64,000 nt of DNA from Candidatus Nomurabacteria bacterium (lineage in GTDB: Bacteria; Patescibacteriota; Patescibacteriia; Magasanikbacterales; UBA922): assembly GCA_020632445.1 (NCBI GenBank), contig JACKFN010000003.1, positions 17,118-81,117 on the forward strand, given 5' to 3'. How positions within the stretch are numbered: position 1 is the first letter of the stretch; each line of letters opens with the position of its first letter. The translations under genes were made by a program, and so were the position numbers. Below are positions 23,091 to 37,070 of this stretch, one piece after another. The notes beneath the pieces were generated by a model. The model was given only the letters and a program-made list of their open reading frames with translations, was not told the DNA's origin and searched no databases.

Positions 23091-23480
23091 TTACTTTTTA
23101 CAAAGATAATATCCTTTACACTTGATACTTGTGCAACTGCAGACTTTACTGGAGCCATCTATTTCAGTTTCAGAATAGTCGCATGTGATTTCATCCCCTT
23201 GGTTGATTTTCTGAAGGGAAATCAAGTACAAACTTCCGTTTTCGAATTTCAACGAGGTATTTGGATTGCAAGAATGATTTACCCAATTCAGAATACTTGG
23301 ATCGTCTACCCATACAATATCTTGAACGTATGCACGCTGTGGTAATGCATGCTTATAGATTTGGTTTAGAGGAACACAATAGAATTTTTTATGTCTTTTA
23401 ATGTTTATACCAGCAAAAACACCTTTGCCATGAATTTTGCTCTTTGATAAATATAATTCTGTGCTTATTGCGTCTGCCAT
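23091..23480 (-). CDS. SET-domain protein (putative lysine methyltransferase)
   Basis: NHSCNPN and GDEITCDY SET signature motifs plus post-SET Cys cluster CSCTSIKCKG. Confidence 0.8.
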   Translation of the reverse strand: MADAISTELYLSKSKIHGKGVFAGINIKRHKKFYCVPLNQIYKHALPQRAYVQDIVWVDDPSILNWVNHSCNPNTSLKFENGSLYLISLQKINQGDEITCDYSETEIDGSSKVCSCTSIKCKGYYLCKK

Positions 23481-24133
23481 AAACGTAAAATTGCTTGTGC
23501 CAACAACTCTAGTGGATCAATTATTACATATGGACAATCTTTAAGCATAAGGCTGAGTTCAGTACACCCAGTCAAAAGGATGTCTTCTTTGTCTACGTAT
23601 TTTTCAATAATATCCCTTACCTTTTTAGATTGTTGCTGAGGTGTCGTTCCTATGACGTACTTTTTAATACAATCCGAAATAGCCTCTCTGTCTTCGGAAG
23701 ATGGAACAATACAATTAGCTTCAGGATAACTGTATAGACTATTGTCATAGCTTGTTTGGGTAGATAAGATTAAAATCCTTTTTTCTATATCTAGAATCTT
23801 CTTTTTTACCTCTTGTCGTAGATCTAGAATGTTAATGGATGTGGTACTTTGCAACTCATCAAAAAAAACATGTGCAGTATTGCATGCAATGGCTATAAAA
23901 TCTACCCCAGCTCTTTCAAGGAGAGCAATTCCTTCTTTATACGGCCAAAGAGTTTCTTTGGTGATTTTTCCTGTGATTAGATCAGGAGCAGGGATGCTAT
24001 TTATTACAATGTGCGGATAATCGGCATTGTTGCGGATAAGTTGTCTTTCTCTACACATCTTGATAAGATGACCGTATAGCCAGGCTGATGACTCTGGACC
24101 GATACCTCCTAAAATACCAATAGTTTTTTTCAT
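23465..24133 (-). CDS. aspartate/glutamate racemase family protein
   Basis: GILGGIGPESS, IACNTAHVF, LLTGCTELSL: the two Cys motifs of Asp/Glu racemases; overlaps SET gene by 16 nt (same cassette). Confidence 0.8.
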   Translation of the reverse strand: MKKTIGILGGIGPESSAWLYGHLIKMCRERQLIRNNADYPHIVINSIPAPDLITGKITKETLWPYKEGIALLERAGVDFIAIACNTAHVFFDELQSTTSINILDLRQEVKKKILDIEKRILILSTQTSYDNSLYSYPEANCIVPSSEDREAISDCIKKYVIGTTPQQQSKKVRDIIEKYVDKEDILLTGCTELSLMLKDCPYVIIDPLELLAQAILRLWQTQ

Positions 24134-24149
24134 ATACTTATACTTTAGC

Positions 24150-24335
24150 GGAAATGGCTAAGTAGTTCAAACCTCGGTTACGGGTAAAGCAATGCAAAAA
24201 ACAAAAACCGCTTATTACAGCGATTTTTTCTTTTAAAAAAGATTGAGCCGAGTAACGGAGGATGTTAGAACTGAGGATGGGGGATTTAGTAGCTTATTGC
24301 CACTCCTGATAAGTTCACTATGTTCATAAGTTCAT
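24150..24335. repeat. cassette module copy 5
   Basis: cagttcaaacctcggttacgggtaaagcaatgcaaaaaacaaaaaccgcttattacagcgattttttcttttaaaaaagattgagccgagtaacggaggatgttagaactgagg...aagttcactatgttcataagttca (stop codon of next gene inside). Confidence 0.85.
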
Positions 24336-25051
24336 TTTTGAACTTGTTCCAGGTAAGTGGTGAGAATATCTCTAAGTGCATCTATAGTTTTGGCAATGGT
24401 TTCGTCAATCAAAGTGTGGAAGCCTTTGTCGCTAATTTCCTCCCGCATATACTCTTCGATGGCTGCATCTGAGTAAAAAATTGTGTCAACTTTTTTATCT
24501 ATGGTCGAAAAATATGCATATTTAGTTTTTTCACCAAGATTTCTAGTTTTATTCAAAAATGCGTTTTTAAAAGAGTTCTCTAATTTGCGTTCCTTTCTGT
24601 TATAGTGAAAGGAGACTTTGTTTCTGACAGCCTCCAAAGTTAAATTTAGATGAGACTTGTCTTGCCCTTTTGCAATTTTCAGCAGTTCATCCCAGTCAGA
24701 TCGGGTCTTATGAGAGACAGACTGGATAACATCTGAAAAAAGCTTTGTAGAGAATAGTTTACTGTTTGTACTGTCTGTATGTTTTAGGAATTCAAAAAAT
24801 TCATGGAGAATACCCACAAAGTACTTGTTTAGATGAACATTCATACCGCAGTAAGATCCAGAATGAGCGGTTGTTTCAATAGGTTTAGGTTTTCGATAGG
24901 TTGACTGAAATAAGCGGACTATTTTTTTTTGGCGTTGAAGATCATTGTAGACAAAAGCAAGATTGAGAAAAAAAGAGAACACAATATCTCCATCTTTTTT
25001 ATACAACTTTTTTGGATCAGTATTCCTTAACTCTCCTGGAAAATCTTCCAT
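24332..25051 (-). CDS. hypothetical protein (239 aa)
   Basis: Intact ORF; no recognisable motif. Confidence 0.5.
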   Translation of the reverse strand: MEDFPGELRNTDPKKLYKKDGDIVFSFFLNLAFVYNDLQRQKKIVRLFQSTYRKPKPIETTAHSGSYCGMNVHLNKYFVGILHEFFEFLKHTDSTNSKLFSTKLFSDVIQSVSHKTRSDWDELLKIAKGQDKSHLNLTLEAVRNKVSFHYNRKERKLENSFKNAFLNKTRNLGEKTKYAYFSTIDKKVDTIFYSDAAIEEYMREEISDKGFHTLIDETIAKTIDALRDILTTYLEQVQK

Positions 25052-25078
25052 AGTCTACATTTGTATATTTTTAATGTA

Positions 25079-25774
25079 TTATGCTACATTCCAAATACAA
25101 GCGCCGTCTTTTGCCTGTTTTTCAACGAATTGCCAAGTTTTTGCATCGTAATGTGCACTTGATGGATATGGAGGCTTATTATGTGCTTTTTCATCCAGAT
25201 CTTCAGGAGCATTATAAACAGTATTGCCACCAGCAAAAAAGTTCGCGGTGCCGACACTTACAACATGTACGGGCGTTTCTGGATAAGCATTTTTGAGTGC
25301 TCGACTGAGTGTCCCAGATCCTCCCATACACCAAATTTCAGGTGCATCTATCTTTGCTTCTTTGACGACTTCTGTAAGTTTTGATTCAAATGCTGGAAAG
25401 TCGAGACCTATTGGTAAAAAAAGTGCATTGTTCTGCTTGGCATATTCCTGGGCAGTTTTGCTCGCTTCTACTTGTGTGTGTGCTCCTTCGACAATATGGT
25501 AGGTTACATTTGGCATTGCTACCGTCTTTTGAAAAATGTCAGTATCTTTTTTGGGTGACAGGTAAAAGAGGGTGACTTTCTTATTTACTTCTTGTGCGGT
25601 AAGAGCAATGGCGTATGCTGCATGCCCATAGTAATCGCAGGCGTAGACAAGTTCTTCCTCTGGTATGGTATCAATGAGTTTTTTGAATGCTCGTCTTTTG
25701 GTACCTCCTTTATATAGATCGTCGCGTACTACTTGAAATTTTCCTACTTTTTCAATTGTAAAGGCATCGGTCAT
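25079..25774 (-). CDS. hypothetical protein (231 aa)
   Basis: Intact ORF 27 nt upstream of the previous gene (two-gene cassette). Confidence 0.5.
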   Translation of the reverse strand: MTDAFTIEKVGKFQVVRDDLYKGGTKRRAFKKLIDTIPEEELVYACDYYGHAAYAIALTAQEVNKKVTLFYLSPKKDTDIFQKTVAMPNVTYHIVEGAHTQVEASKTAQEYAKQNNALFLPIGLDFPAFESKLTEVVKEAKIDAPEIWCMGGSGTLSRALKNAYPETPVHVVSVGTANFFAGGNTVYNAPEDLDEKAHNKPPYPSSAHYDAKTWQFVEKQAKDGACIWNVA

Positions 25775-25794
25775 AGATATAGGTTATTTGTAGT

Positions 25795-25935
25795 AGAGTA
25801 TAGCAAAATAGCACTTCAGTTCAAACCTTGGTTCCCAGTACAACAATTCAAAAAACAAAAACCGCTTATTACAGCGATTTTTTAATTTGAAAAACGGTGA
25901 GCCGAGTAACGGAGGATGTTAGAACTGAGCAGTGC
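25795..25935. repeat. cassette module copy 6
   Basis: tatagcaaaatagcacttcagttcaaaccttggttcccagtacaacaattcaaaaaacaaaaaccgcttattacagcgattttttaatttgaaaaacggtgagccgagtaacggaggatgttagaactgagc. Confidence 0.85.
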
Positions 25936-25945
25936 AGATGGCAAC

Positions 25946-26851
25946 TTACAATAAACCTCCGACCAATAGCCTAAATTCTTTTTTTGTATTGTAGATTTTT
26001 GTGAGTTTTTCAAAATTTTTATCAGGATCAAGAAGGAGATTCGCGAGTTTATCAACTTCTTTTAACTCTGATTCTGTCATGTTTTCAAAAACCTTGGGGT
26101 TCGAATATTTTGGTCCGTGGTTATAATGAATTTCATTACTCATCAGACTATGAAAATCATAAAAAAGAGACCATAGCACGGGGAGCATACCAAATACATG
26201 TCCTGCATTGTAAAAGTGCTTTGCTGGGATCTTTCCTGAACGAACATCTCGCCAAGCTTGTGCAGGGAAGTCGAATTGACCATTTTTGATATCATAAGGG
26301 TCAACGCTTTTGTCAAAAATTGATAGAGATCCGTCTACGTCGATTGTGACCCAACGTTTTTGTTTTTTATCCCAATATTGATTTATCCAGTGGTCAGTGC
26401 TTACTTTACCAAGAGAACCCATATCAAAATAGTTTGCATGTCCAGCTCTTACTCGGCAAGGAATTCCTTTTGATTTGAGAATTGAGGCCATGAGGATCGA
26501 GGTATATCTACAGGTAAGTATAATTTTATTTTCGGTTTTTCTTTTGAGGGTTAGTCCTTTTTTGTCTCTACGAAAGAGTTCAGCAAGCATCGAAGATGCC
26601 GTTAGTAGGATGTCATCTTCGGGTTGTTTCCACCAAGGAAGCTTTGTCATATCTCCAAAGCGAAGGTCAGCATTGGATCCTGTATTTCCTGCAGCCAGGG
26701 TGGTACGATGAATAATATTTTTACGTACGAGAAGACCAATATCCTCGATGTCATCTGGAAGATTTTTTTTAAGATATTCTTGGTAACATCCAGGATAAGT
26801 GAAGGTGCTAAACTGTTTATAGTGTTTGATAATTTTTTGTGAAATTTCCAT
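25946..26851 (-). CDS. transglutaminase-like cysteine peptidase superfamily protein (tentative)
   Basis: Cys (ILTCRYTS), His (STDHWINQ), Asp (VTIDVDG) spaced as in the transglutaminase-like catalytic triad. Confidence 0.4.
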   Translation of the reverse strand: MEISQKIIKHYKQFSTFTYPGCYQEYLKKNLPDDIEDIGLLVRKNIIHRTTLAAGNTGSNADLRFGDMTKLPWWKQPEDDILLTASSMLAELFRRDKKGLTLKRKTENKIILTCRYTSILMASILKSKGIPCRVRAGHANYFDMGSLGKVSTDHWINQYWDKKQKRWVTIDVDGSLSIFDKSVDPYDIKNGQFDFPAQAWRDVRSGKIPAKHFYNAGHVFGMLPVLWSLFYDFHSLMSNEIHYNHGPKYSNPKVFENMTESELKEVDKLANLLLDPDKNFEKLTKIYNTKKEFRLLVGGLL

Positions 26852-26889
26852 AAAATGACGATATGATTATGTTGTTGATAGTATATCAG

Positions 26890-27070
26890 AGTAATATGGT
26901 ATGTTCCAGTTCAAACCTCGGTTCCCAGTACAACACTACAAAAAACAAAAACCGCTTATTACAGCGATTTTTTAACTTGAAAAACGGGGAGCCGAGTAAC
27001 GGAGGATGTTAGAACTGGGAATGAAAAGTTGGGCTCTTTACTACCACTCCTGAGAAGTGCATGAAGTTCA
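26890..27070. repeat. cassette module copy 7
   Basis: ccagttcaaacctcggttcccagtacaacactacaaaaaacaaaaaccgcttattacagcgattttttaacttgaaaaacggggagccgagtaacggaggatgttagaactggg...gaagtgcatgaagttcataagttcacc (contains stop codon of 27068 gene). Confidence 0.85.
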
Positions 27071-27478
27071 TAAGTTCACCTCAATAGGATATTGATCTCC
27101 AGCACATGGTAAAAGATCTTTTATTGTTGATGTTTGTTCCATACCTAATACTACCTCAGTTTTCAAATTTTTGTTATTTATTTGGTAGATAAATTCACGA
27201 CATCGTCCACAAGGTGGCAAAATGGTGATGTTTCCTTGGTCGTCTTTTTTAGCGGCTACAATTTTTTTGATTTGATATTGGCCTTGGGTGATCATCTGGC
27301 TTACAGCAGTATGTTCAGCACAAAATCCCATGCCTGATATGGTGTCTATACAAACACCTTTGAATACCGTTCCATCCATGGTTTCAAGTGCGCAGCCCAC
27401 ACCACCCATATCAGCATCATCAATACGAATTGGGTGAACTACTTTGAGAGCTTCATTTATAATTTCTTGGTTGGTCAT
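27068..27478 (-). CDS. cytidine/deoxycytidylate deaminase family protein
   Basis: GFCAEHTAV (H/CAE zinc motif) and PCGRCREF (PCxxC zinc motif). Confidence 0.8.
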   Translation of the reverse strand: MTNQEIINEALKVVHPIRIDDADMGGVGCALETMDGTVFKGVCIDTISGMGFCAEHTAVSQMITQGQYQIKKIVAAKKDDQGNITILPPCGRCREFIYQINNKNLKTEVVLGMEQTSTIKDLLPCAGDQYPIEVNL

Positions 27479-27496
27479 AGTTTAGTAATTTTTACA

Positions 27497-28003
27497 TCAC
27501 AGCTTTTTCAGTAGAAAATCTAAAGATTTTGCTAGTTCATTAAATTTTTTCTTTGTATATCCAGTATCATTTGATTCTAGACTTTGTAAATGTATCTTAT
27601 TTCTTTCCGTACGGACTTTATCTAGAATTTTGTACTGAGACTCACTTATTATACTTTTGTCTTTCAAGTATAGATTCAACCTACCAAAAGTAACTCCTTT
27701 ATCATCAATAGAAATTTCCTTTTCTTTTTTCTCGCATATATAGAGATCTGTTGAAATCCCTAAACTTTTAGCAGGTATCTTATGCTTAATGGGATATTCC
27801 CGAGCCTTATCAATTACATGTTTGGGTTTTGGTGTTGAACGTTTAACCAATTGATATACGAATCCCTCAATGATAGTGCAAAGTAATATAATTGCCGCCC
27901 TATAATAGGACGATTTGGCTACATTTGATATTCCCTTTTTTTCAGCATGACTAAGTTGCACTGAAACAGCGGTTATTCTACGGTTGACATTATCCTTAAA
28001 CAT
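27497..28003 (-). CDS. hypothetical protein (168 aa)
   Basis: ORF; one TM helix; no motif. Confidence 0.4.
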   Translation of the reverse strand: MFKDNVNRRITAVSVQLSHAEKKGISNVAKSSYYRAAIILLCTIIEGFVYQLVKRSTPKPKHVIDKAREYPIKHKIPAKSLGISTDLYICEKKEKEISIDDKGVTFGRLNLYLKDKSIISESQYKILDKVRTERNKIHLQSLESNDTGYTKKKFNELAKSLDFLLKKL

Positions 28004-28302
28004 TAAATCTACTTATTTTTTTTGTTAATATTTTTGATTGCCTTACTAAGGGAGGGGTACCCTTTTTTATCAAGAAAAGTTTCCAGCTTCATATCAGAAC
28101 GCACGCCAAAATCTACACCATATGCTTTCTCTATAGTACCGATCTTAGTATCATTTCTTTTTTTTCTAAATTGATTCTTCTTTGGCATACAACTAGATTT
28201 TAGTATGCTAGTATTATATCTCTATACATAGCTTTTGTGAAGTTTATGAAGCACTTAAGAAAATTTCAAAGTTCGTATTTGTTGAGTATTGAGTTTTATT
28301 GC

Positions 28303-28563
28303 CTAGTTACAATGTCTATTGTACTTGGGTTCAGTTGTTATGGGATTTTTAACATCCAGAGCATAATTGCTTGGTTCATCAATTGTCCTTAATATTGGAT
28401 ATGTATATGCCCTTTCTGCCCCGAAGCCACTTGATATGTCACAGTAAAGTGTTTTCAGTTCTTTCTTTAGGTTTTCTACTTCTCGGCTTTGTTTTTGTTC
28501 GTTTATAAAGAAAAAAGTGTTAGAAGCAATCAAAAGAAAAATTAGTGCGCAAAGAGTTTTCAT
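28303..28563 (-). CDS. small secreted protein
   Basis: Signal peptide MKTLCALIFLLIASNTFFF; 86 aa. Confidence 0.35.
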   Translation of the reverse strand: MKTLCALIFLLIASNTFFFINEQKQSREVENLKKELKTLYCDISSGFGAERAYTYPILRTIDEPSNYALDVKNPITTEPKYNRHCN

Positions 28564-28619
28564 AGATAGTTAACGTTTAGCTTATATTAAGTTTGATAGT
28601 GCACAGCTATTTGTTTGCG

Positions 28620-29579
28620 CTAGTTTAGAGTTTCTTCACAGACGTAGGATTGATACTTAGTTTCATACTTGCAGTTTGATCCGCATTCATAGTCAAAGCC
28701 TTCATCCCCATACGAAACTTCATCAATCCAGTCTATACATTCTTCGTACGAGTTAAAATCTCCTTCAATCATCCAGGTCGATTCATCGCTTGGAAGTCCA
28801 TAAGGGTAGTAGAAGCCTGTCCATTTTTCTGACTGTATACTGTCTATTGCACCGTTGGCAAGACCAACTATAAGCGTGAATAAAAAGGCTATTATTCCCC
28901 AAATTTTCCACTTTCTTTGGTATTTCAAAAACACTTCAGGGCTTTCCCATTCTTGAGATTTCCATGCTAGCTGGTTTCCTTTTACACCAAGGTATACCCA
29001 GTAAAATAGGTTTAAAATGGGAACAAACATCCAAAATGTGTGCCATACTTTATTTGGTATGCCCCAGATTATGTTGAGGCCAGCAGCCCCCCAATTCCAT
29101 CGCTTAATTTCTTGTGGTATTTCTGACAAGTCTCCTTTACCTGATCTTGGATCAGCACTTGAGTTTGGTGGAATCAGTGGAATTGTAAGATAAGCAATAC
29201 CGACAGGGATGCCGATTAAAAGTGCCAATAGTCCTGCAACACCTAGTAAGCTTAAGAGAACCCGCACAATGCTCATCATGGTTTCTGCTCCCTCAGAAGG
29301 AGATGCAATACTTGTAAAGACTGCTAATGTAATAGCGTAAAATACCATTATCAAAATCAAAGAAAAAATTGGAAAAGTCAACCATAAGATCCCTTTTTTT
29401 CTGTTGAACTTGCGCTTGATAGTATACTCCGCTTCGGAGACGGCGTATTGACTGGATGAATTATTACTTTTCACGGCTTTGTCTTGTTTTTTGAGTATTG
29501 TGTTAGAAATTGCGTCTCCACAGGAATGGCAAAACTTTGCTTCTTCTCGGAGTTTGTGTCCACATTGAGTACAGAACAT
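28620..29579 (-). CDS. zinc-ribbon membrane protein
   Basis: MFCTQCGHKLREEAKFCHSCGDAI zinc ribbon followed by several TM helices. Confidence 0.5.
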   Translation of the reverse strand: MFCTQCGHKLREEAKFCHSCGDAISNTILKKQDKAVKSNNSSSQYAVSEAEYTIKRKFNRKKGILWLTFPIFSLILIMVFYAITLAVFTSIASPSEGAETMMSIVRVLLSLLGVAGLLALLIGIPVGIAYLTIPLIPPNSSADPRSGKGDLSEIPQEIKRWNWGAAGLNIIWGIPNKVWHTFWMFVPILNLFYWVYLGVKGNQLAWKSQEWESPEVFLKYQRKWKIWGIIAFLFTLIVGLANGAIDSIQSEKWTGFYYPYGLPSDESTWMIEGDFNSYEECIDWIDEVSYGDEGFDYECGSNCKYETKYQSYVCEETLN

Positions 29580-29603
29580 ATGTATTTTGCTAGTGATTTA
29601 AAG

Positions 29604-30926
29604 TTATTGTACAAATTGACTTGGTTTGTAGAATAGGCTTGGGATTATTTCAAGAATTTTGCTTATTGAAAGGATTCCACCGTAACTTTCAAGTTCACCA
29701 TGCAATCCAACTGTTGGAACGCCAAGAAAACAATTTTTTGTTGTATCGATAGCTGTCCCGCCAGAGTTACCGTGGTCGATTTTTGCTGATGTTACATAAA
29801 AGCCATCAACCCTACTCTCTATTCCACTAAGCAATCCTTCAGTGACGGTAAGATTTTCACCACTGACTGAGGGAAATCCATAAATTCTAATCGAATCTCC
29901 TATCTGAGTTTGATCTTCTGTGCACGGTAGAATTGGGAGTGGTTTAAGAGTGGATGGTGTACTTGACGAAAGCTCGAATGTCCAAAAGTCATAATCTTCA
30001 TTTTCTCTCATGGAGTAAGATACGGTGTAAAAAGTGTCTGATAATATGCCTTTTTTGTCAACGCCCATTACTATGCAGTACTCAGGGTATCCAAGACTTA
30101 CATGCATATTGGAAAGTACTCTTGTTTCGGTTATAACGGTTCCAGAACCTTGAGATATGTATTCAAAATTTGGGTCAGTACATAGAATTTTGACAATAGA
30201 TGAAAATAGTTCTGGGTCCGAGTTAGTACTTGTTGTATGGTTTTCAATTATTTCTATAGTCGTTTGAGAGACAAATGATAAACGATCTATTTTCGATGCA
30301 TCATTTCCGTCATAGATTAGAAAATACTTGAAGCGATATTTAGTACGTCTCAGGTCTTCTTTTGTGTTTTCTGTAGCAAGTACATCGACGTTACAGACAA
30401 AGTCAGCACAATCGAGTGATTGAACTTCGTGAGCAAGGGTATTTTTGTAACCGTCTTTCCATTCTGCAAAAGAGATTCGTTCTTGTGCTGGTATACTGAG
30501 CAGACCAAAAGCTCCTTCGTAGTCTCTGAAATCAAGTAGGTTGAAGTATTTACGAATGGCAGTTTCCGCTTCTTCTTTTGAAAATTCTTTTGTGACTATA
30601 TTTGGGGATGAAGTACTAGTGTCTACGTGGGTTTCCTTTTTTAAATTATTGCTTTGGCTTACAGCCATTGAAATGAAAAATATAACTATGACACCTAGAA
30701 CTAATATCAAAATTATCCAAAACAGGAAGATGGGGCTTCTATTGTTTTTTTGTTGTGTGATTTGATTTGTCTGGCTTTGGGTTTGTGGTTTGTGCAGGCT
30801 TGATCCACAAGAGTGACAAAATTTTGATGATTCTTGCTGTTGTTCACCGCAATTGTGACAAAAAGTCATAGAAATATGTATAAAGACAAAAAGCTGCCGC
30901 CCAAATGTAGTCTTACGACTACTCAT
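29604..30926 (-). CDS. zinc-ribbon-anchored protein with C-terminal trypsin-like serine protease domain
   Basis: FCHNCGEQQQESSKFCHSCGSSL (likely true start at MTFCHNCG, ~30869), TM helix, C-terminal IDHGNSGGTAID = GDSGG-type catalytic Ser motif. Confidence 0.5.
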   Translation of the reverse strand: MSSRKTTFGRQLFVFIHISMTFCHNCGEQQQESSKFCHSCGSSLHKPQTQSQTNQITQQKNNRSPIFLFWIILILVLGVIVIFFISMAVSQSNNLKKETHVDTSTSSPNIVTKEFSKEEAETAIRKYFNLLDFRDYEGAFGLLSIPAQERISFAEWKDGYKNTLAHEVQSLDCADFVCNVDVLATENTKEDLRRTKYRFKYFLIYDGNDASKIDRLSFVSQTTIEIIENHTTSTNSDPELFSSIVKILCTDPNFEYISQGSGTVITETRVLSNMHVSLGYPEYCIVMGVDKKGILSDTFYTVSYSMRENEDYDFWTFELSSSTPSTLKPLPILPCTEDQTQIGDSIRIYGFPSVSGENLTVTEGLLSGIESRVDGFYVTSAKIDHGNSGGTAIDTTKNCFLGVPTVGLHGELESYGGILSISKILEIIPSLFYKPSQFVQ

Positions 30927-31104
30927 GCCCGTTTCCAGACACGACCAACCAAGGAGATGAGCGGACAGCTTACTACCTTGGTTGGTTTTGTTGCCATGCC
31001 TCCCTATGGAGGTTTAGGCATAAGTTGTGAGTGGAGTATACCGCAAGTGGTTGACTTATTTCAAGTATTTGTTACTGTGAGAACAACATTGGATTTACAA
31101 GAGT

Positions 31105-32286
31105 ATGAGAATTTCTGACTTAAAAGAAGATTTGGAACGTCGTTTTTTAGCCATTCAGAATGCGGAAGACAGGCCTGTTTTTTATAGATACATATATGAT
31201 TATCTTTCTGCCATTTTTGACTCTGACAAGCTGATGTCCATTGTTGAGTCCCTGGAGCAGGAACGCGATGCTGAGTACGAAGAGTATTGGAGATTACATG
31301 CCCTTTCAGAGAAATCTGTTGATGTATCCGTACAGGAATTGATTAAAATATATGAAGGGATCTCTGATCCATCCGAGAATTTGGTGCAGGCTAAGGCAAG
31401 CCTTGATAAGGTTTTTTCAGGTAGTGTTTCTAGTAATATAGATTTTCTGTCAAACAAGGTAAGGCATTTGACTGATTTTATACGTGAGTTACGAGAGGTT
31501 GTTAACATGGAACAGCTTGCCAGTTTTACTTCTCAAGAAACTATCAGATTTCCTGCTGTCAGAGAGGTTGATTTACCAACAGGAAAGAAACTTGAACATT
31601 ATATTCGAAAAGAAAATTTGGCCGATAAGTATGCTTTTTCTTTTTATTCTGAGGAGTACGAAAATTGTTTGCGAGAAAAGCAAAGAATAGATAGGTTAAA
31701 ACACAGTACAATATGGGATGCATGGTTTTCTTTGAAACCTATCAAGTTTCTCATTGCAGATCAGCAAAATCTGCGTCTCATGATTGAGTGTGAAGAATAT
31801 CATGATAAGACAAAGGTGGAATATTATATCGCGGCCTACTATGCTTTAAACAATAAGGGAGAAGAAGAAAGACGAGCTCAATATTTTGGAGACATTCAAA
31901 GATTACATATTTGGATTTTGAGGGGATTATTTGAAGGGGAAAAGATAGATATAGTTGTGGATTTCGACAAAGGTATATACCAAAAAGATATACCTGAACG
32001 TTCGTATCCCTTAACTGGGAATCGTTTACAAATAATGAGATACTTGCGGAAAACATACAAGAAAGGTCCTGTCTTGGCATATGAAGTGTATGGTGATGAA
32101 AAAAAATTAAGTGCACTTTCTCATGATATAAATGGAAAAAATGGAAGTAGCAAAGGTATCAACACTCATTTGAATGAAAAGGGAATAGTACCTGAGGGGA
32201 TGAAGCTCATCGTGAAGAGGGATAACGGTGGGTATATGCTAGATCGACAAAACTTTTCTATTGATTATGCTGGAGATTGGAGTTGA
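31105..32286 (+). CDS. hypothetical protein (393 aa)
   Basis: Intact ORF, soluble, no motif. Confidence 0.45.
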   Translation: MRISDLKEDLERRFLAIQNAEDRPVFYRYIYDYLSAIFDSDKLMSIVESLEQERDAEYEEYWRLHALSEKSVDVSVQELIKIYEGISDPSENLVQAKASLDKVFSGSVSSNIDFLSNKVRHLTDFIRELREVVNMEQLASFTSQETIRFPAVREVDLPTGKKLEHYIRKENLADKYAFSFYSEEYENCLREKQRIDRLKHSTIWDAWFSLKPIKFLIADQQNLRLMIECEEYHDKTKVEYYIAAYYALNNKGEEERRAQYFGDIQRLHIWILRGLFEGEKIDIVVDFDKGIYQKDIPERSYPLTGNRLQIMRYLRKTYKKGPVLAYEVYGDEKKLSALSHDINGKNGSSKGINTHLNEKGIVPEGMKLIVKRDNGGYMLDRQNFSIDYAGDWS

Positions 32287-32865
32287 CGGATAGTTGTTGT
32301 ATATAACCTGTTTAAAATCAGCTAATTTAAGCTGATTTTTTGTATTTGTCACTCAAGTAAAATGCAATTATATTTCAGCTTTGGTTTTTCTATACTTACT
32401 GTAGTGAGCTCACAACTATTTATCTACAATTAGCAAACATATGACAAAAGACATGAAAAACGTCCCATTCTTAGATGATTACCAAAATCCAGTAGCGGTT
32501 CAAGACCTTGGTGCTTGCGCTGGGCTTGTAAGTTCGGGATACCCTCTCCTGCATATAGACCGCAGCCAGGGGAGCAAAGCATTCTTTCTATTCGAAAATG
32601 CTGATGAGATTCATGAGGCAATTCAGTTGTATTGGCGTGATCAACTCCAGGTGAGTGCACTTGCAAACTTCAACGCATTGAAGAACGTGAAAACGAGACT
32701 CTATTCTGACACTGGATATGAAGCTTAAGGATAAAGAACTTGGGGAATTTATAACATTGTACGAGCAAGCCTTTGGTATCAAGCTAGAAAAGGCTGATGC
32801 TGAGGGAAAAGCACAGGCAGTTTTGAATCTGGTAAAGCTGACCTATAAGCCAATAAAAAAAACGT

Positions 32866-34215
32866 ATGCAAAAGAGCAAGAATAAGAACAAGAAGACGAA
32901 ATATAGACCAACTCATGAGGATGATGGTTACCTCTATGAAATGATACTTGACCCAAACGACGGAAAGACCTATTTCGTAGGACTCGTGGATGGTGAGGTC
33001 AAAATCCGAGAGGAGTTTGGAGATACAAAACCATTTCCTGCAACACATGACCTTATAGCCTATGGTGCGATTATGCTGCCATCAGAAGCCACTAAGTATG
33101 GTTCACAGGCGGAGCTAATAACAGAGATACAGACATTCATTCACAAATACCTGGAGGTGTCTCCATTTTATGAGAAAATAGCAACATATTACGTCCTTTT
33201 CACTTGGATGTATGACAAGTTTAACGAGCTTCCATATTTGCGAGCAATTGCAGACTTTGGGAATGGGAAAAGTCGATTTCTCAAAACAATAGGGAGTCTT
33301 TGCTATAGGCCAATGGTAACCATGGGAGCATCTACTGTAGCCCCTATATTCCGCATCCTGCACCAATTTCATGGAACTTTGATTCTTGATGAAGCAGATA
33401 TTCGGTATAGCGACACAAATAACGAAATTGTGAAGATCCTTAACGTGGGATTTCAAAGGGGACAGCCTGTATTCCGTTGTAGTGCAGCGGAATACGACGA
33501 TGTGCAGGCTTTCGAGGTATTTGGGCCCAAGCTCGTGGCAACACGGGAAAAGTATCAAGATCAGGCATTGGAGAGTCGATTTTTGGTGGAGAAGATGGAT
33601 GGCAGCCTGACGAGAAGTGATGTACCGATAAATCTAGGCGATAGTTTTGGAAAGGAGGCCTTGGCTATACGAAACAGGTGCCTTTATTGGCGTTTGGAGA
33701 ATTATTCAAAGGAGTTTCAACCATACAGAATTGAAGACAAATCTATTGAGCCTCGATTACGTCAGATCGCTGCACCTCTTTGTGGAATTATAGAGGATGA
33801 AGCCATGCGTAATGAGTTGATAGATTTCATACGTACGTACAATAACGAGTTACGCGATGATAGGGGCATGACGGATGAAGGAGAAATATTGGAGGTCATG
33901 ATTGGATTGGCGAAAGAGGATTCGGGTGATATATCGATAAATAGTATAACTTCTACATACAATTTACGTCTTACAACCAGGAATCAAAAAAGTGAAGTAA
34001 GCAATAAGAAAGTTGGCTACATCGTTCGACATAGCTTTAACATGCAGAATAAACGGGCAAATCATGGGTATGTCGTTGTGAGGGAGTCGTTCGATAGAGA
34101 AATCAAAAAACTTCTGGTGAAGTACAATTTTGAGGATGAACTTGTGAACTTAGTGAACGTTACAGGAGAGGCTGAGCCGTTTGTGAAGGAAATGCGTGAG
34201 TTGGGAGTTGAATAA
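32866..34215 (+). CDS. P-loop NTPase, mobile-element-type (primase/helicase-associated ATPase-like)
   Basis: Walker A FGNGKSRFLKT and Walker B LILDEADI; sits inside a probable integrated element next to the recombinase. Confidence 0.5.
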   Translation: MQKSKNKNKKTKYRPTHEDDGYLYEMILDPNDGKTYFVGLVDGEVKIREEFGDTKPFPATHDLIAYGAIMLPSEATKYGSQAELITEIQTFIHKYLEVSPFYEKIATYYVLFTWMYDKFNELPYLRAIADFGNGKSRFLKTIGSLCYRPMVTMGASTVAPIFRILHQFHGTLILDEADIRYSDTNNEIVKILNVGFQRGQPVFRCSAAEYDDVQAFEVFGPKLVATREKYQDQALESRFLVEKMDGSLTRSDVPINLGDSFGKEALAIRNRCLYWRLENYSKEFQPYRIEDKSIEPRLRQIAAPLCGIIEDEAMRNELIDFIRTYNNELRDDRGMTDEGEILEVMIGLAKEDSGDISINSITSTYNLRLTTRNQKSEVSNKKVGYIVRHSFNMQNKRANHGYVVVRESFDREIKKLLVKYNFEDELVNLVNVTGEAEPFVKEMRELGVE

Positions 34216-34828
34216 TCAAAATGATATGACTAAAGAAATAGAACACAAAAAACAAGAGATGTGGGATCGAATAGAAAAGAGAAAACTTGCAAAGATGCTG
34301 TCTTCCTCGTCCCACCCTGAACAGGTTATTGGAAAGTTCAAGGAGATGCTCAAGAAATATAACAAAGACGCAAAGGCAGTTTCTGACAAAGAATTTGATG
34401 ACAAATTTGTCAAAGCAGCTATGACGTTGGGTTTGGAAACACATTTCCCTCTAGCTCATGCAACAAGATCGTTGACACAGCCGTTAGCGATCGAGTTTGC
34501 CAACAGCCTCAGTAAAGAGTTCAAGGTTAGTAATAGTGCCGAAAAAGCACTGGTGCAGATAGTTGCTAATTCTTATGTACGGGTGATGAACCTCTCCAGT
34601 CAGCTAAACGATGTTCTTCATTTGGGACACGCCACCAACAACCTTAATGGATTTTACGCCGCTGTAAGTAAGGATCTTGATAGAGCGCACAGGCAATTTG
34701 TATCTTCTCTTACACTTCTTAGAGAGCTTAAAATGCCCCCAATAAAGGTCAATGTCCATACAAAAGCAGCTTTCATAGCACAGAATCAACAATTGAACAA
34801 TAATCCATATGAAAACGATAAAGGGTAA
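34196..34828 (+). CDS. hypothetical protein (210 aa)
   Basis: ORF overlapping previous stop. Confidence 0.4.
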   Translation: MSWELNNQNDMTKEIEHKKQEMWDRIEKRKLAKMLSSSSHPEQVIGKFKEMLKKYNKDAKAVSDKEFDDKFVKAAMTLGLETHFPLAHATRSLTQPLAIEFANSLSKEFKVSNSAEKALVQIVANSYVRVMNLSSQLNDVLHLGHATNNLNGFYAAVSKDLDRAHRQFVSSLTLLRELKMPPIKVNVHTKAAFIAQNQQLNNNPYENDKG

Positions 34829-35150
34829 TGATTACGGAAAAAGGTACCTGGTGGAAGACTGCAAGAAGATTCGCATTGATGAGGTGGTGAAGAAAAGTAA
34901 AAAGCAGATATTGGAAAGCCTCTTACACGGAGTCATCGAGCTAGATGGTGTAAGTTTGGGTGTTACGAGTCACACTCTCCATAATGGTGGAAGAAGACTA
35001 TTTTTCGAGTGCATAAAATGCAAACTCCCATGTGGAATTATTTATAAGCATCCTGTCACCAGTCAGATTGGGTGTAGAAAGTGCCTTCACCTCGATTATA
35101 GAAGTAGAAGGTACAAAGGCATGATTGAAAATAACCTCGAAAAGAGGTAA
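34809..35150 (+). CDS. small Cys-containing hypothetical protein
   Basis: CIKCKLPCG...CRKCLHLDYRSRR putative zinc finger. Confidence 0.35.
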   Translation: MKTIKGNDYGKRYLVEDCKKIRIDEVVKKSKKQILESLLHGVIELDGVSLGVTSHTLHNGGRRLFFECIKCKLPCGIIYKHPVTSQIGCRKCLHLDYRSRRYKGMIENNLEKR

Positions 35151-35298
35151 AATACCTATGCTTACCCATTTCCCGTAAAAGGCCAGAGGCTTTATTGTTC
35201 GTTGTATCAATAAGGCAGTCCTGCCAATGAACAGTCCTCTGGATTGGGATTTGGGTAAGCCAGGACTGTCTTTTGTTTTGCTAACATTTATCAAACAT

Positions 35299-36954
35299 AT
35301 GAAAAAACTACGTTACGCACGCTATACACGTAAATCAACAGACTCAGAGGATAAACAAGTGCAATCTATTGATGATCAGATTCGTGAAATTCAGCCTGAA
35401 ATTGATAGAAGGAATCTTGATGTGGTGATTACTTTTGAAGAGTCAATGTCAGCCAAAAAACCAGGAAGACCAAAGTTTAATGAAATGATGCAGATGATCA
35501 AAGCGGGTGAGATTGATGGAATTGTTTGTTGGAAGTTAAATCGTCTTGCCAGAAATCCTGTGGATGGTGGTGAAATACAGTGGTTACTACAACAGGGAAT
35601 ATTAAAATCCATTGTTACGCCATCAAGGGAGTATCTTCCAAGCGATAATGTATTGATGATGGCAGTGGAGTTGGGTATGGCAAACCAGTTTGTCTTAGAT
35701 TTAAGCAAGGACGTGAAAAGAGGATTGACCACTAAGAATCATAAGGGTTGGAGACCTGGAAAAGCACCAATGGGATACATAAATGACAAGTATGGTGATA
35801 AGGGGAATAAAAAGATCTATGTGGATGAGGAAGTGTTTCCATTGCTTCGTCAGGTGTGGGATATGTTGCTTACAGAGCGGTATAGCATACATGAGCTGGC
35901 TAAGATAGCCACAGAGCAGTTTGGCTTGAAAAATAAGAGTGGGTTGGGATTACACGACAGCACCTTATATGGAATATTCACAAATACATTTTACTATGGA
36001 GAATATACATATGCTGGTGATGTATTTCAAGGAGCGCACACTCCGCTTATCACGGTAGAGGAGTTTGATAGGACACAGCAGATATTAGGTAAGAAGGGAA
36101 AGCCTCGCCCGAAGAATAAAAGACTCCCATACAATGGAATTATTGATTGCGGTGAATGTGGTGGTATGATTACTACAGAAGATAAGCGCAAGGTCATAAA
36201 ATCCACTGGAGAAGTTCGTAGGTACCTGTATCATCGTTGTACAAAGCGAAAGTCTCATGTTTCTTGTGGTCAAAAGCCAATAAAGCATGAAGAGTTAACA
36301 AATCAGATAGATGGATATCTAGAGCAAATAACTATACCAACAGAGTTTCTCTCTTGGGCTATTAAATGTCTCAGAAGAGAAAATGAACTTCAGGACAATC
36401 AACGCAATAGAATCCTCTTAAGCCAGCGAAAGGCTTATGACCTATGCTTGAAGCGCCTGAGCAACCTTACAACGCTTTATATAAGCCCTGAGAACATTGA
36501 CAGGTCTCTACTTAATGAAGATGAGTTTAGAAAACAAAAGGAAGAAATGCGCAAAGAGAAGCTTAGGTTGGAACAGGAAATAAGAAAGGTTGAAAGCGGT
36601 GCAGATGAATGGTTCGAACTGGCAGAGAAGACATTTAACTTTGCGACCTATGCTCGACATCATTTTGAAGAGGGAAATTTTGAAACAAAAACAAACATAC
36701 TTCGTTGTCTAGGAAGTAATTTCACACTCAAAGATGGAAAACTTTCTATTGAATTGCAAAAACCATTTGTGACCTTAAAAGAAGGTTTTGAAAGTGCACC
36801 TTTAAAGGAATATAGGTTAGAACCAGGCAAATTTGCCTTAATAGAAAAGAAAAACAGCCATTTGAAGGCTGCTTCTGAGCTTGTGAGCCGTTATCCAGGA
36901 TTGAACTGGAGACCTCATCCTTACCATGGATGCGCTCTACCAACTGAGCTATAA
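35299..36954 (+). CDS. large serine recombinase (resolvase/invertase catalytic domain + recombinase domain + zinc ribbon)
   Basis: YARYTRKSTDSEDKQ..SIDDQ (Ser catalytic motif), GIVCWKLNRLARN, CGECGG...YHRCTKRK...CGQK; start at MKKLRY; 3' end overlaps tRNA-Thr. Confidence 0.8.
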   Translation: MKKLRYARYTRKSTDSEDKQVQSIDDQIREIQPEIDRRNLDVVITFEESMSAKKPGRPKFNEMMQMIKAGEIDGIVCWKLNRLARNPVDGGEIQWLLQQGILKSIVTPSREYLPSDNVLMMAVELGMANQFVLDLSKDVKRGLTTKNHKGWRPGKAPMGYINDKYGDKGNKKIYVDEEVFPLLRQVWDMLLTERYSIHELAKIATEQFGLKNKSGLGLHDSTLYGIFTNTFYYGEYTYAGDVFQGAHTPLITVEEFDRTQQILGKKGKPRPKNKRLPYNGIIDCGECGGMITTEDKRKVIKSTGEVRRYLYHRCTKRKSHVSCGQKPIKHEELTNQIDGYLEQITIPTEFLSWAIKCLRRENELQDNQRNRILLSQRKAYDLCLKRLSNLTTLYISPENIDRSLLNEDEFRKQKEEMRKEKLRLEQEIRKVESGADEWFELAEKTFNFATYARHHFEEGNFETKTNILRCLGSNFTLKDGKLSIELQKPFVTLKEGFESAPLKEYRLEPGKFALIEKKNSHLKAASELVSRYPGLNWRPHPYHGCALPTEL

Positions 36955-36958
36955 CGGC
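36886..36958 (-). tRNA. tRNA-Thr (anticodon GGT)
   Basis: Minus-strand GCCGTTA-TA-GCTC-AGTTGGTA-GAGC-G-CATCC-ATGGTAA-GGATG-AGGTC-TCCAG-TTCAATC-CTGGA-TAACGGC-T folds as cloverleaf; CCA not encoded. Confidence 0.8.
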
Positions 36959-37070
36959 GTATATGGGGAACATTGTACTCAAAAAGTCCAAGAAAGTCAA
37001 GGCAATATACGTAAACTCATTGAGTCGGCAGGCTTGGCCTTTTTTGGGAGCACGTGTATACTGGTGACAT

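Follow-up and report, generated by a model that had tools for sequence, protein, structure and literature searches.

The block of genes next to tRNA-Thr(GGT) in the 64,000-nt stretch of Candidatus Nomurabacteria DNA analysed here (the window) is, as we hold with fair confidence, an integrative and probably self-replicating element inserted at the tRNA gene's 3′ boundary by a large serine recombinase (LSR), and the repeat modules of the adjoining gene array would be junctions of captured cassettes. Its right end is marked by two overlapping genes:

35299–36954, plus strand: large serine recombinase, 551 aa (Pfam Resolvase, Recombinase and Zn_ribbon_recom)
36885–36958, minus strand: tRNA-Thr(GGT) (ARAGORN and Rfam)

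The LSR gene, whose stop codon ends at 36954, overlaps the antisense tRNA-Thr by 70 nt, and its final 23 codons are antisense to the tRNA; the initial annotation had put this overlap at about 69 nt, which ARAGORN and Rfam bear out. According to ARAGORN this is the sole tRNA of the window (36885–36958, minus strand), Rfam places it at 36886–36958 (65 bits), and as read from its letters it is intact with a perfect acceptor stem. The recombinase ORF spans 35227–36954 on the plus strand, the likeliest start being 35299 (MKKLRYARYTRKSTD). The earlier identification as an LSR was confirmed by the Pfam domains Resolvase (2e-17) and Recombinase (1.6e-9), joined by Zn_ribbon_recom at 24.0 bits, slightly below the cut-off of 25.3, and by the catalytic-pocket residues R11, S13, R82 and R85, which are invariant in a 42-sequence alignment. 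Its best structural relatives are the A118 integrase (4KIS, E=1e-10), to whose C-terminal domain residues 170–429 align, and SPbeta SprA (9DXH); identity to any LSR from an isolated phage or a plasmid is at most 27% (50,697 phage and 72,556 plasmid records). It was the only recombinase detected in a Pfam scan of about 40 of the window's larger ORFs and remains, as previously proposed, the sole candidate for handling the cassettes.

The overlap recurs throughout the family. From 76 homolog loci with a stop codon we set aside 7 contigs ending at most 50 nt from it, leaving 69 informative loci. In 53 of these the LSR ORF ends inside, or reads through, a tRNA gene, always on the opposite strand, and eight isotypes are involved (Gly, Asn, His, Gln, Thr, Trp, Asp and Ala). 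We estimate from typical tRNA gene density that a random gene end would fall in a tRNA in well below 1% of cases; the overlap is far beyond chance. Antisense tRNA overlap is the rule for a large recombinase family of uncultivated bacteria, of which a literature search yielded no description, and it supports the original suggestion of an integrative element with its recombinase set against the tRNA. The tRNA targets vary even between close recombinase homologs. Of 84 homolog contigs, about 17 terminate no more than about 50 nt from the recombinase stop, which fits assembly breaks at a polymorphic junction.

The DNA on both sides of the tRNA 3′ end carries further features:

36816–36823, plus strand: box1, GTTAGAAC, a T-loop-like octamer within the recombinase ORF, coding for the LE of RLEP
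36850–36876, minus strand: intrinsic terminator for the tRNA, 10-bp stem and T-run, the best terminator-like site in 26.7–37.2 kb
36885–36906, minus strand: B′-type half-site GAGCCGTTATCCAGGATTGAAC, 22 nt as measured from the tRNA 3′ end to the T-loop (in the model below, the right half of attR)
36972–37000, minus strand: host-side promoter-like site TTGACT-17-TACAAT upstream of the tRNA, a consensus match only

Starting 9 nt past the tRNA 3′ end, the terminator falls within the recombinase ORF and is encoded on the opposite strand. At the corresponding position the recombinase strand has an A-run (AAAA[AC]) in 40 of the 52 homolog loci, and a hairpin is visible beside it in the homolog recombinase tails displayed. 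Box1 lies 69 nt before the tRNA-Thr 3′ end; in 39 of the 52 loci GTTNGAAC precedes the tRNA 3′ end by 65 to 76 nt, most often by 69 or 67, with 0.007 expected per locus. The box1 codons are limited to TTA, TTG and TTC while the encoded amino acid varies, which indicates a constraint on the DNA.

Among the homologs, the recombinase tail has two alternative states, meeting either a tRNA or a 27-nt site. Six tRNA-less homologs (L013, L031, L048, L073, L075 and L115) carry this site exactly at the expected tRNA start, and its spacing from box1 is 69 nt in the four of the six that were measured. The site starts like a tRNA 3′ end and finishes with the T-loop-like GTTNGAAC, which lies 5 bp farther out than in the tRNA (22 nt). 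A scan requiring the tRNA's first 7 nt and a terminal GTTNGAAC, with spacers of 5–19, gave matches only at a total of 27 nt (22 + 5); these numbered 11, from 5 loci of which the Asn-type L080 is one, and a single stray hit was seen besides. In serine integrases, the motif for the zinc-ribbon domain lies 5 bp nearer the centre in attB than in attP (PMC3783163), and the shift from 22 to 27 nt matches this half-site rule.

In 16 homolog loci a module of terminator plus 27-nt site also bounds the element distally. It always lies on the recombinase strand and on the element side, 4–10 kb upstream of where the recombinase gene starts; in L024 and L026 its position is precisely the junction of housekeeping and element genes. 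About 300 kb of control loci contain no such module, and in IMG/VR it occurs at chance level without excess. With invariant GAGC and GTTAGAAC ends, the 27-nt site was found in 12 other recombinase loci from different genomes (0.0015 expected in the searched sequence), and four loci hold paired modules 0.8–3 kb apart. The putative attL and attR of one locus have a common core of 4–7 nt (GAGC, or GCTCCGC in L080). The cognate tRNA is a better match to the modules than non-cognate tRNAs are, by both measures in L080 and, for most window copies, by the inverted-copy measure. A search for a conserved fold in 13 modules found none.

In the window, the 27-nt site occurs eight times, as the repeat of a cassette array to the left of the element:

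26931–27019, plus strand: rightmost att module, terminator 26947–26972 followed by the P′-type site GAGCCGAGTAACGGAGGATGTTAGAAC at 26989–27015
19319–19404, 20372–20432 (partial), 21047–21132, 22005–22091, 23000–23088, 24190–24275 and 25843–25928, plus strand: seven more att modules (repeat families D2, D3, D6 and D7; module HMM)
19705–20352, plus strand: cassette gene before the partial module

The first 6 nt of the site at 26989–27015 are identical to the tRNA-Thr 3′ end, and the architecture of the rightmost module is that of the host/element-boundary modules in L024 and L026. One or two genes lie between modules, on the minus strand except in the interval before 20372–20432. Each repeat combines a terminator with a promoter-like TTGAAC-N16-TATACT for the next gene. 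The array described in the initial annotation is thus real, its last repeat ending at about 27083, and the link then suspected between array and recombinase gains support, since the repeat holds the att-type site found at the distal boundary of homologous elements. The units of the array are probably stacked cassettes that lack a recombinase and were caught at the same site as the element.

Between the rightmost module and the recombinase we found:

27068–27478, minus strand: cytidine/deoxycytidylate deaminase-like gene (Pfam), right of the rightmost att module
27497–30926, minus strand: leftward cargo arm (Pfam), poorly conserved in other elements, with the next four entries
27497–28003, minus strand: HEPN-like protein (below Pfam cut-off)
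28009–28188 and 28303–28563, minus strand: small ORFs
28620–29579, minus strand: zinc-ribbon membrane protein (Pfam)
29604–30926, minus strand: zinc-ribbon/TM/trypsin-like protease (Pfam)
30907–31020, minus strand: LOOT RNA (RF03000), Rfam 81.1 bits (gathering score 46.4)
31035–31064, minus strand: promoter-like site of LOOT RNA (promoter search)
31105–32286, plus strand: 393-aa protein (ORF), first gene of the rightward arm
32441–32728, plus strand: DUF5659 protein (Pfam), upstream of the recombinase in 20 homolog loci
32718–32885, plus strand: conserved 55-aa ORF, upstream of the recombinase in 11 homolog loci
32866–34215, plus strand: 449-aa P-loop ATPase, 1836 homologs
34196–34828, plus strand: conserved 210-aa protein next to the 113-aa gene (tblastn matches in L028 and L038)
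34809–35150, plus strand: 113-aa small Cys-rich protein, encoded immediately before the recombinase gene, with homologs in the same position in L028, L038 and L001–L005

The two zinc-ribbon membrane proteins (the second trypsin-like), the P-loop ATPase and the small orphan ORFs agree with the gene content first reported. Judged by sequence, the ATPase is probably a replication helicase-type protein: alone it has no Pfam, PHROG or PDB hit, some homologs are fused to Prim-Pol and PriCT_1 (P0229) or to the NrS-1 polymerase HBD (P0182), and in L021, L023, L026, L029 and L112 it stands immediately upstream of the recombinase homolog. The 393-aa protein has no family match in Pfam or PHROG and does not resemble the polymerase portion of P0182. 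The analysis identified no directionality factor for the window recombinase; the 113-aa Cys-rich protein, without a Pfam or PHROG match, is a candidate accessory or directionality factor. LOOT RNA extends into the start of the leftward operon and shows compensatory changes at 15 of 27 pairs (6 sequences); with our own covariance model it was detected in 26 of 85 sources, in every case on the element side and upstream of the recombinase. The DUF5659 protein, the 55-aa ORF and the ATPase are kept among homologous elements and cargo differs completely between related copies; the leftward arm gave weak PHROG matches to superinfection-exclusion-like membrane proteins. The GC content of the element (0.35–0.42) is near the flank value.

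In the model that we propose, recombination would be centred on the tRNA 3′ boundary. attB would consist of the tRNA's downstream terminator and spacer together with its last 22 nt, the T-loop serving as distal recognition motif; attP, at the 3′ end of the recombinase gene, would be the recombinase tail followed by the 27-nt site, a tRNA-end copy with its T-loop-like motif 5 bp farther out. Integration would create attR, the recombinase tail abutting the intact host tRNA, which would explain why the recombinase ORF reads into the tRNA, and attL, in which the displaced terminator precedes the 27-nt site at the opposite end of the element. The tRNA would stay host-derived and intact and only its terminator would be exchanged, the recombinase tail supplying the replacement on its other strand. 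Both the attP-type copies and the 5-bp rule point to this crossover centre and to an intact, host-derived tRNA. The predicted attB-empty junction is ...ACAGCGATTTTTTAACTTGAAAAACGGG joined to GAGCCGTTATCCAGGATTGAAC..., and that of attP ...GGCTGCTTCTGAGCTTGT joined to GAGCCGAGTAACGGAGGATGTTAGAAC....

The module at 26931–27019 would be the attL of the complete element, which would then span about 26,989–36,886 (about 9.9 kb); rather than at 27497, as first drawn, the left edge more likely lies at about 26989, taking in the cytidine deaminase gene as the last cargo gene. In the proposed layout, LOOT RNA marks the point where two arms diverge: a leftward one of variable cargo, and a rightward one that carries DUF5659, the primase-associated ATPase, two small proteins and the recombinase. 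The other seven modules would be junctions of earlier recombinase-less cassettes, captured successively at the same tRNA boundary. Canonical serine integrases are not known to recombine attP with attR, so that serial capture needs each cassette end to regenerate a usable attB, as we assume; the leftmost module, which resembles the other modules and not a distinct host terminator, counts against it. Searches for an empty site or a circular junction, for the window element or any relative, found none, so that the mobility of the element is an inference; the flanking gene reaches only 52% identity with its nearest relatives, which are not syntenic. No clear dyad symmetry relates the left half-sites to the right ones. 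The fixed 69-nt position of box1 and an inverted T-arm copy upstream of each module's terminator are left unexplained by a crossover at the boundary.

Three loci bear on a different crossover, inside the tRNA T-loop, by which the element's copy of the last 17–22 nt would rebuild the tRNA, as initially proposed, and the displaced 3′ fragment would remain at the far end. L015 (3038–3054 and 11594–11610), L021 (2252–2268 and 11596–11612) and L080 (3766–3786 and 11560–11580) have 17–21-nt direct repeats of the tRNA 3′ end that run from the discriminator to the T-loop, with a terminator hairpin just outside the left copy; they point to a T-loop crossover, and a crossover at the boundary needs a separate earlier event for them. 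However, such a repeat lies within 10 kb in only these 3 of 52 loci, the other 49 being at background, and the 36 kb of window to the left holds no copy of the tRNA 3′ segment, the direct repeat that had been expected as the other att site. A T-loop crossover also gives no account of the 27-nt site at the recombinase tail of tRNA-less copies or of the 5-bp rule, and an attP half equal to the attB half would conflict with the known half-site asymmetry of serine integrases. We regard it as unlikely.

It is possible, if somewhat doubtful, that the element is real and the array unrelated to it, the repeat being a terminator-promoter unit or a genome-specific intergenic repeat whose att likeness is coincidental or due to common descent of terminators. 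The terminator and promoter-like site of each repeat would suffice to explain its conservation, arrays of at least three modules were looked for in other genomes and none was seen, and homologs of one module-flanked gene sit in ordinary contexts. Against this stand the exact 27-nt site in other recombinase loci, the paired modules, and the fact that the window's version copies the tRNA-Thr end. That this copy is domesticated or immobile, whether fixed in the chromosome, decayed to a prophage-like remnant or left with a recombinase that serves another role, we find improbable: the searches for an att duplication, an empty site and a circle were all negative and the GC content resembles the flanks, but the recombinase ORF is intact with all catalytic residues, cargo and targets differ between related copies, and attP-type copies exist.

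In its domain order (catalytic resolvase, recombinase, zinc ribbon) the enzyme resembles the A118/LI, Bxb1, phiC31 and SPbeta SprA integrases and, as in phage-type large serine integrases, its gene adjoins the att site and the distal motif is displaced by 5 bp between the two site types. Phage-type enzymes mostly target protein-coding genes, whereas the target here is a tRNA gene end, with the universal T-loop as proposed distal motif, and the proposed attP lies within the recombinase ORF, whose C-terminus would change with the integration state. P4-type islands and SSV-type proviruses likewise have an integrase gene against a tRNA and variable cargo, with the att site inside the int ORF in the SSV type. 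Their tyrosine integrases belong to an unrelated family, though, and the window has neither a long identical core nor a duplicated tRNA 3′ segment; the boundary crossover would leave the tRNA un-rebuilt and replace only the terminator.

The Ccr large serine recombinases of staphylococcal SCC elements insert at the 3′ end of rlmH (orfX) without inactivating the gene; SCC elements stack in tandem at one site, and recombinase-less pseudo-SCC units are movable in trans. SCC/Ccr is the closest functional analogy for the proposed cassette stack, a likening by family membership, whereas the SCC target is a protein gene, the units measure tens of kb and the host lineage is another. If our reading of the array is true, cassette array and LSR element use the same docking site at tRNA-Thr.

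A large LSR survey never mentions tRNA in its main text (PMC10083194). The tycheposons of Prochlorococcus are small integrative tRNA-gene elements as well, with site-specific recombinases, primase/helicase genes and cargo islands beside the tRNA, but nearly all use tyrosine recombinases (LSR in 27 of 937), they are flanked by partial tRNA copies and they belong to another host phylum (bioRxiv 10.1101/2020.12.28.424599). Their description, which sets them apart from the window element, holds no 27-nt +5 site, ORF/tRNA overlap or LOOT RNA (bioRxiv 10.1101/2020.12.28.424599). Integrons share with the array its one- or two-gene cassettes in one orientation (here with one opposite-strand gene), recombination-type end modules of about 130 nt and an adjacent site-specific recombinase. 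No IntI tyrosine recombinase was found among the Pfam-scanned ORFs of the window, and, unlike integron cassettes, those of the window are bounded by modules that are not attC hairpins and each have their own promoter-like site.

The open reading frame at 35227–36954 (+), with a likely start at 35299, carries the Pfam domains Resolvase (catalytic domain, 2e-17) and Recombinase (C-terminal part, 1.6e-9), followed by Zn_ribbon_recom at 24.0 bits, which is below the cut-off of 25.3. In an alignment of 42 sequences the residues R11, S13, R82 and R85 (serine nucleophile and arginine pocket) are invariant, as are four cysteines of the zinc ribbon (C284, C287, C314 and C323). The best PDB match was the A118 integrase (E=1e-10), with residues 170–429 aligning to its C-terminal domain (4KIS); identity to any large serine recombinase (LSR) in the phage and plasmid collections did not exceed 27%. 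By every feature that can be tested in the sequence, the protein is predicted to be a large serine recombinase, yet one remote from those studied. A protein search yielded 2855 relatives among 8000 scored candidates, the named ones belonging to Patescibacteria groups, and a scan of viral contigs gave two distant matches. No entry of the protein collection was identical to the window recombinase (best match 71%); the neighbouring 449-aa ATPase (32866–34215) is 100% identical to P0133, a Candidatus Nomurabacteria protein from an NCBI record. The recombinase may have been left unannotated in the source record owing to its overlap with a tRNA, in which case surveys that rely on annotation would miss part of the family.

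The final 70 nt of the recombinase gene are antisense to tRNA-Thr(GGT) at 36885–36958 (−), the sole tRNA of the window (Rfam, 65 bits). The closest relative, at 70% identity, shows the same overlap with tRNA-Thr(GGT) in five assemblies, and a 58% relative overlaps tRNA-Gly(TCC). For a wider view, an alignment of the family was used to retrieve 80 loci from genomes and 2 from viruses; we located the end of each ORF and the nearest tRNA, and based the tally on the 76 loci with a stop codon. The ORF ends in, or reads through, a tRNA in 53 of the 76 loci, which involve Gly, Asn, His, Gln, Thr, Trp, Asp and Ala tRNAs, and in all 53 the tRNA lies on the strand opposite to the recombinase. Two further ORFs stop about 43 nt short of a tRNA, in seven loci the contig stops within 50 nt of the ORF end, and 14 loci have no nearby tRNA; four of the loci scored as lacking a tRNA or as contig ends (L019, L078, L081 and L114) contain tRNA-like sequence recognizable by eye that ARAGORN missed or that was cut off. 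Most family proteins terminate in W/L/M-S-G, residues that represent CCA or the discriminator plus the acceptor end, read antisense. Overlap with a tRNA is thus a property of the recombinase family, and in the window as in most homolog loci the integrase gene adjoins a tRNA gene, the arrangement taken as a criterion for islands. These results uphold two claims of the initial annotation, namely that a probable integrative element lies at tRNA-Thr and that its large serine recombinase overlaps this tRNA.

About one in five homolog contigs end inside, or within about 50 nt of, the junction of the recombinase 3′ end and the tRNA (L010, L018, L020, L029, L034, L040, L041, L053, L054, L065, L070, L076, L081, L084, L112 and L114). 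All five assemblies of the closest relative (L001–L005) break 265–355 nt upstream of the recombinase. Such breaks suggest strain-level polymorphism at the recombinase junctions.

The tail of the recombinase gene contains further DNA signals. The best terminator-like hairpin of the region, a 10-bp stem with a T-run, extends from 36876 to 36850 on the tRNA strand, directly downstream of the tRNA and wholly within the recombinase ORF. Of 52 loci, 40 have the A-run matching the terminator T-run in the corresponding place, and a hairpin beside it is visible in the displayed homolog tails; the conserved protein motif K-N-S...V-F-S arises because terminator and A-run are coded in the recombinase tail. 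Farther upstream lies a T-loop-like octamer, box1 (GTTNGAAC, 36816–36823), which is found 69 or 67 nt before the tRNA 3′ end in 39 of 52 loci against an expectation of 0.007 per locus. The residue encoded there varies (L, F, V or I), with codons limited to those that keep the octamer. A second box, GTT[C/G/T]GAAC(C), was noted upstream of box1, about 180–250 nt before the stop codon and in the codons of a conserved G-x-N-F/L motif (L018, L020, L034, L040, L043, L048, L054, L059, L065, L073 and L086).

To the left, the element meets an array of gene cassettes, and the region was delimited as follows.

Features of the element and the adjoining array
19270–27083: cassette array with repeats of 130–200 nt
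26989–27015: proposed attL, the 27-nt site of the rightmost module
27068–30926, minus strand: leftward arm with deaminase-like and HEPN-like genes, small ORFs and two zinc-ribbon membrane proteins (Pfam)
Rightward arm, in order: 393-aa protein, DUF5659, 55-aa ORF, 449-aa ATPase, two small proteins, recombinase
~36885: proposed attR

The initial annotation had suggested that the element rebuilds the 3′ end of the tRNA. This is probably wrong: a direct repeat of the tRNA 3′ segment is absent from the window by BLAST-short and a mismatch scan, and a tRNA 3′-end repeat of 17–21 nt was present in only 3 of 52 relatives (L015, L021 and L080), where it lies 7.8–9.4 kb to the left and ends in the T-loop. 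The distal end of the element instead carries a 27-nt variant site. The core of the array repeat, a terminator hairpin followed by GAGC-N15-GTTAGAAC, was found in 12 other recombinase loci, where the part after the terminator is exactly 27 nt long and lies on the recombinase strand and the element side. A module HMM matched 16 loci in addition to the eight copies in the window, and in L024 and L026 the module sits precisely where housekeeping genes give way to those of the element. The module was absent from control loci, and the 27-nt pattern gave only eight matches in IMG/VR viral contigs, which is chance level, with no terminator or recombinase alongside.

At its start, the 27-nt site has the same nucleotides as the 3′ end of its cognate tRNA read antisense: in the window these are GAGCCG, for Thr; Gly loci have GAGCTGG or GAGCCGA vs GAGCGGG in the tRNA, and the Asn locus L080 has GCTCCGC. 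The site terminates in a T-loop-like octamer, and in the tRNA itself the equivalent span measures 22 nt. When left flanks were scanned for the first 7-mer of the tRNA block, a spacer of 5–19 nt and then the octamer of box1, every match except one had a spacer of 12, giving 27 nt in total and specific for a shift of +5. The attB sites of serine integrases have the motif recognized by the zinc ribbon 5 bp nearer the centre than the attP sites do, and this shift is what tells the two sites apart (PMC3783163). Because the 22- and 27-nt blocks obey the published 5-bp shift, the tRNA block and the 27-nt site look like B-type and P-type half-sites for one protein, with the acceptor end serving, in this view, as proximal motif and the T-loop as distal motif. 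Six tRNA-less loci (L013, L031, L048, L073, L075 and L115) have a 27-nt site at the recombinase tail, starting exactly where the tRNA block starts in other loci; the recombinase tail thus has one of two partners, a tRNA or a P-type site. We also considered the 27-nt site as the 5′ half of a tRNA or as a decayed, displaced tRNA 3′ end, and rejected both on the grounds of its fixed length, its ends that are invariant across genomes, and its tail position in the tRNA-less copies.

The simplest reading of these two tail states is a canonical assignment of attachment sites: attP would be the recombinase tail joined to the 27-nt site, attB the tRNA terminator and spacer joined to the tRNA 3′ part, attR the recombinase tail joined to the tRNA, and attL the terminator joined to the 27-nt site. 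The crossover centre would lie in the shared core of 4–7 nt at the tRNA 3′ boundary, a position that we favour slightly. The tRNA would stay host-derived and intact, with the element supplying only a new terminator, and the ORF would overlap the tRNA because attP lies within the 3′ end of the recombinase gene. The model predicts an empty site of the form ...ACAGCGATTTTTTAACTTGAAAAACGGG joined to GAGCCGTTATCCAGGATTGAACTGGAGACC..., and a circle junction of the form ...AAAAACAGCCATTTGAAGGCTGCTTCTGAGCTTGT joined to GAGCCGAGTAACGGAGGATGTTAGAACTGGGAATG.... A search for the empty site through the flanking YibE/F protein in metagenome_contigs gave a best relative of 52% and no synteny, exact-protein queries with the window's own flanking YibE/F gene and with the ATPase P0133 gave no contig, and no terminal overlaps marking circles were seen in 26 whole contigs.

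The weakest point of the model is that the T-loop-delimited repeats of three loci do not follow from it. At these loci, a GC-rich segment of 70–150 nt with an inverted tRNA 3′ copy lies between repeat and module, and we take it to be a separate earlier insertion. Homologous GC-rich segments of about 150 nt were noted at the left element ends of L015 (3055–3207), L016 (200–340) and L021 (2269–2425). They share GATCGCAT...CTCGCTTC[TC]GCC[CG]G...GTTCGA, fold stably, end in an inverted copy of the 3′ part of the target tRNA followed by a terminator, and had no Rfam match; they may represent a new structured RNA.

With attL at the rightmost module and attR at ~36885, the element measures about 9.9 kb. 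We are confident, if short of certain, that it belongs among the integrative elements of an LSR family that targets tRNAs; the initial annotation, which began the element at 27497, had proposed its integrative nature and probably placed its left boundary slightly off. The gene content listed there is present. One of the two zinc-ribbon membrane proteins carries a trypsin-like domain, and the deaminase-like gene of the leftward arm resembles cytidine deaminases. Genes of this arm are barely conserved, and since they vary between relatives, the arm is regarded as cargo. A 63% relative (L112, 443–7599) carries a different, defence-type cargo arm, with an OLD-family nuclease (AAA_15/AAA_21 and TOPRIM) and a large helicase (1598 aa, AAA_11/AAA_12), and the leftward cargo of the window is plausibly defence-related, too. 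From the rightward arm, DUF5659, the 55-aa ORF and the ATPase were found again upstream of homologous recombinases. The ATPase had no match in PHROGs or PDB; because relatives of it occur as fusions with Prim-Pol/PriCT_1 or with an NrS-1-type polymerase domain, autonomous replication of the element is suggested. The 393-aa protein showed no similarity to the polymerase part of a fused ATPase homolog, and the small proteins encoded at 34196–35150 are candidate directionality factors.

At the point where the two arms diverge, with a promoter-like site just upstream, the window contains a LOOT RNA (RF03000, 30907–31020, minus strand) scoring 81.1 bits against a gathering threshold of 46.4. Rfam also matched LOOT in L006 and L080, and an alignment of six copies revealed compensatory changes in 15 of 27 pairs. 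A covariance model built from these six detected 26 copies in 85 sources, all situated 2–7 kb upstream of the recombinase, on the opposite strand in 20 cases and on the same strand in six. LOOT is therefore a regular component of this recombinase element family. The main text of the LOOT discovery paper contains no discussion of this RNA.

The cassette array reported in the initial annotation proved to be genuine, a family of repeats whose last copy ends near 27083. Its units consist, on the plus strand, of a T-arm-like box (matching the inverted T-arm of tRNA-Thr at 14 of 17 positions), the terminator and the 27-nt site, and the coding strand carries a promoter-like TTGAAC-N16-TATACT serving the next gene. 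Between the units lie one or two genes of unrelated functions (HIT, ClpP-like, SET, racemase, kinase-like and transglutaminase-like), on the minus strand except for 19705–20352 (+). Composed in this way, the array could be an unrelated terminator–promoter repeat. The link between recombinase and array proposed in the initial annotation is, for its part, probably right in kind: the repeat core is common to the array and other recombinase loci, and the junction of recombinase tail and tRNA has its parts in the same order as the units, with which MAFFT aligned it. In four other loci two modules lie 0.8–3 kb apart, and in L006 the interval between them is a high-GC insert. This segment (1221–3669, between modules at 912–1001 and 3880–3970) has its own ORFs in a low-GC genome. 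A longer array was sought to the left of L011, where the neighbouring protein occurred only on 1.2-kb contigs and its homologs in ordinary contexts.

We propose tentatively, as something rather less than an even chance, that the array grew by serial cassette capture. The units would be attL-type junctions, left behind as cassettes devoid of a recombinase inserted in succession at the tRNA boundary, and the complete element would be the latest arrival in the stack; each cassette end would be required to act anew as the left half of attB. A bolder generalization, which we hold to be somewhat more doubtful still, is that recombinase and terminator/27-nt modules form an integron-like system run by a serine recombinase, and that this system is widespread, in Patescibacteria as in other uncultivated phyla. 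Single-gene, recombinase-less cassettes, each with an att module some 130 nt long that mimics a tRNA gene end, would be captured one by one at the tRNA 3′ boundary by an LSR acting in trans, and every insertion would come with a promoter of its own and renew the terminator. What lies in the window is not an integron, for neither IntI nor attC folds were found. Integrons have the tyrosine recombinase IntI beside the array, whereas no Phage_integrase-type match was found in about 40 larger ORFs of the window; attC sites are imperfect hairpins with conserved R and L boxes, whereas 13 array modules gave no consensus structure and no Rfam match, so that an attC-like hairpin or structured RNA was rejected for the array repeat.

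The SCC/ccr system resides at the 3′ end of rlmH and is the closest functional analogy for the cassette stack. Serine recombinases at tRNA genes have some precedent, though little of it. Of the 937 tRNA-island elements in Prochlorococcus, 27 encode a serine recombinase (bioRxiv 10.1101/2020.12.28.424599); the tycheposons of this genus, compared here by their text description, are defined by hallmark gene families and partial-tRNA flanks. A large LSR survey analysed only protein-coding targets, and tRNA is nowhere mentioned in its main text (PMC10083194); a literature search returned nothing relevant describing such a system in Patescibacteria.

If borne out, these results would point to a large serine-integrase clade with tRNA gene ends as natural targets, with thousands of members found by sequence search and no more than 27% identity to any LSR of isolated phages or plasmids. 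A universal T-loop as distal motif and a variable acceptor end would account for the family's passage from one tRNA species to another. Paired attP/attB candidates become available for dozens of orthogonal integrases, which is of practical interest as serine integrases serve in genome engineering and no genome lacks tRNA genes. The orphan LOOT RNA gains a genomic home, and a concrete mechanism is offered for gene flux in Patescibacteria, in which mobile elements are poorly known; should the stack be recombinase-driven, it would be akin to an integron but work with another enzyme.

Additionally, we noted several features outside the element. A group I intron (Rfam, 88 bits) lies at 18922–19150 of L006, about 60 nt downstream of tRNA-Ala (18789–18864). 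Positions 3000–9000 of the window have a GC content of 0.57–0.72, in a genome of about 0.40, and contain many Cys/Asp-rich repeat ORFs such as 5570–8248 (892 aa). This block is not rRNA by Rfam and looks like foreign DNA or a chimeric join; the high-GC segment of L006 is reminiscent of it. At 9393–9583, an 86-nt repeat (CATGCCATCGAGGCG...) is present inside an ORF in five overlapping copies, offset by 21 or 42 nt with an underlying period of 21 nt. Finally, a perfect palindrome of 42 nt (ATGTCTTGTTAATATACCCAT followed directly by ATGGGTATATTAACAAGACAT) occupies 15182–15223, just downstream of the stop codon of a minus-strand BipA/TypA gene.
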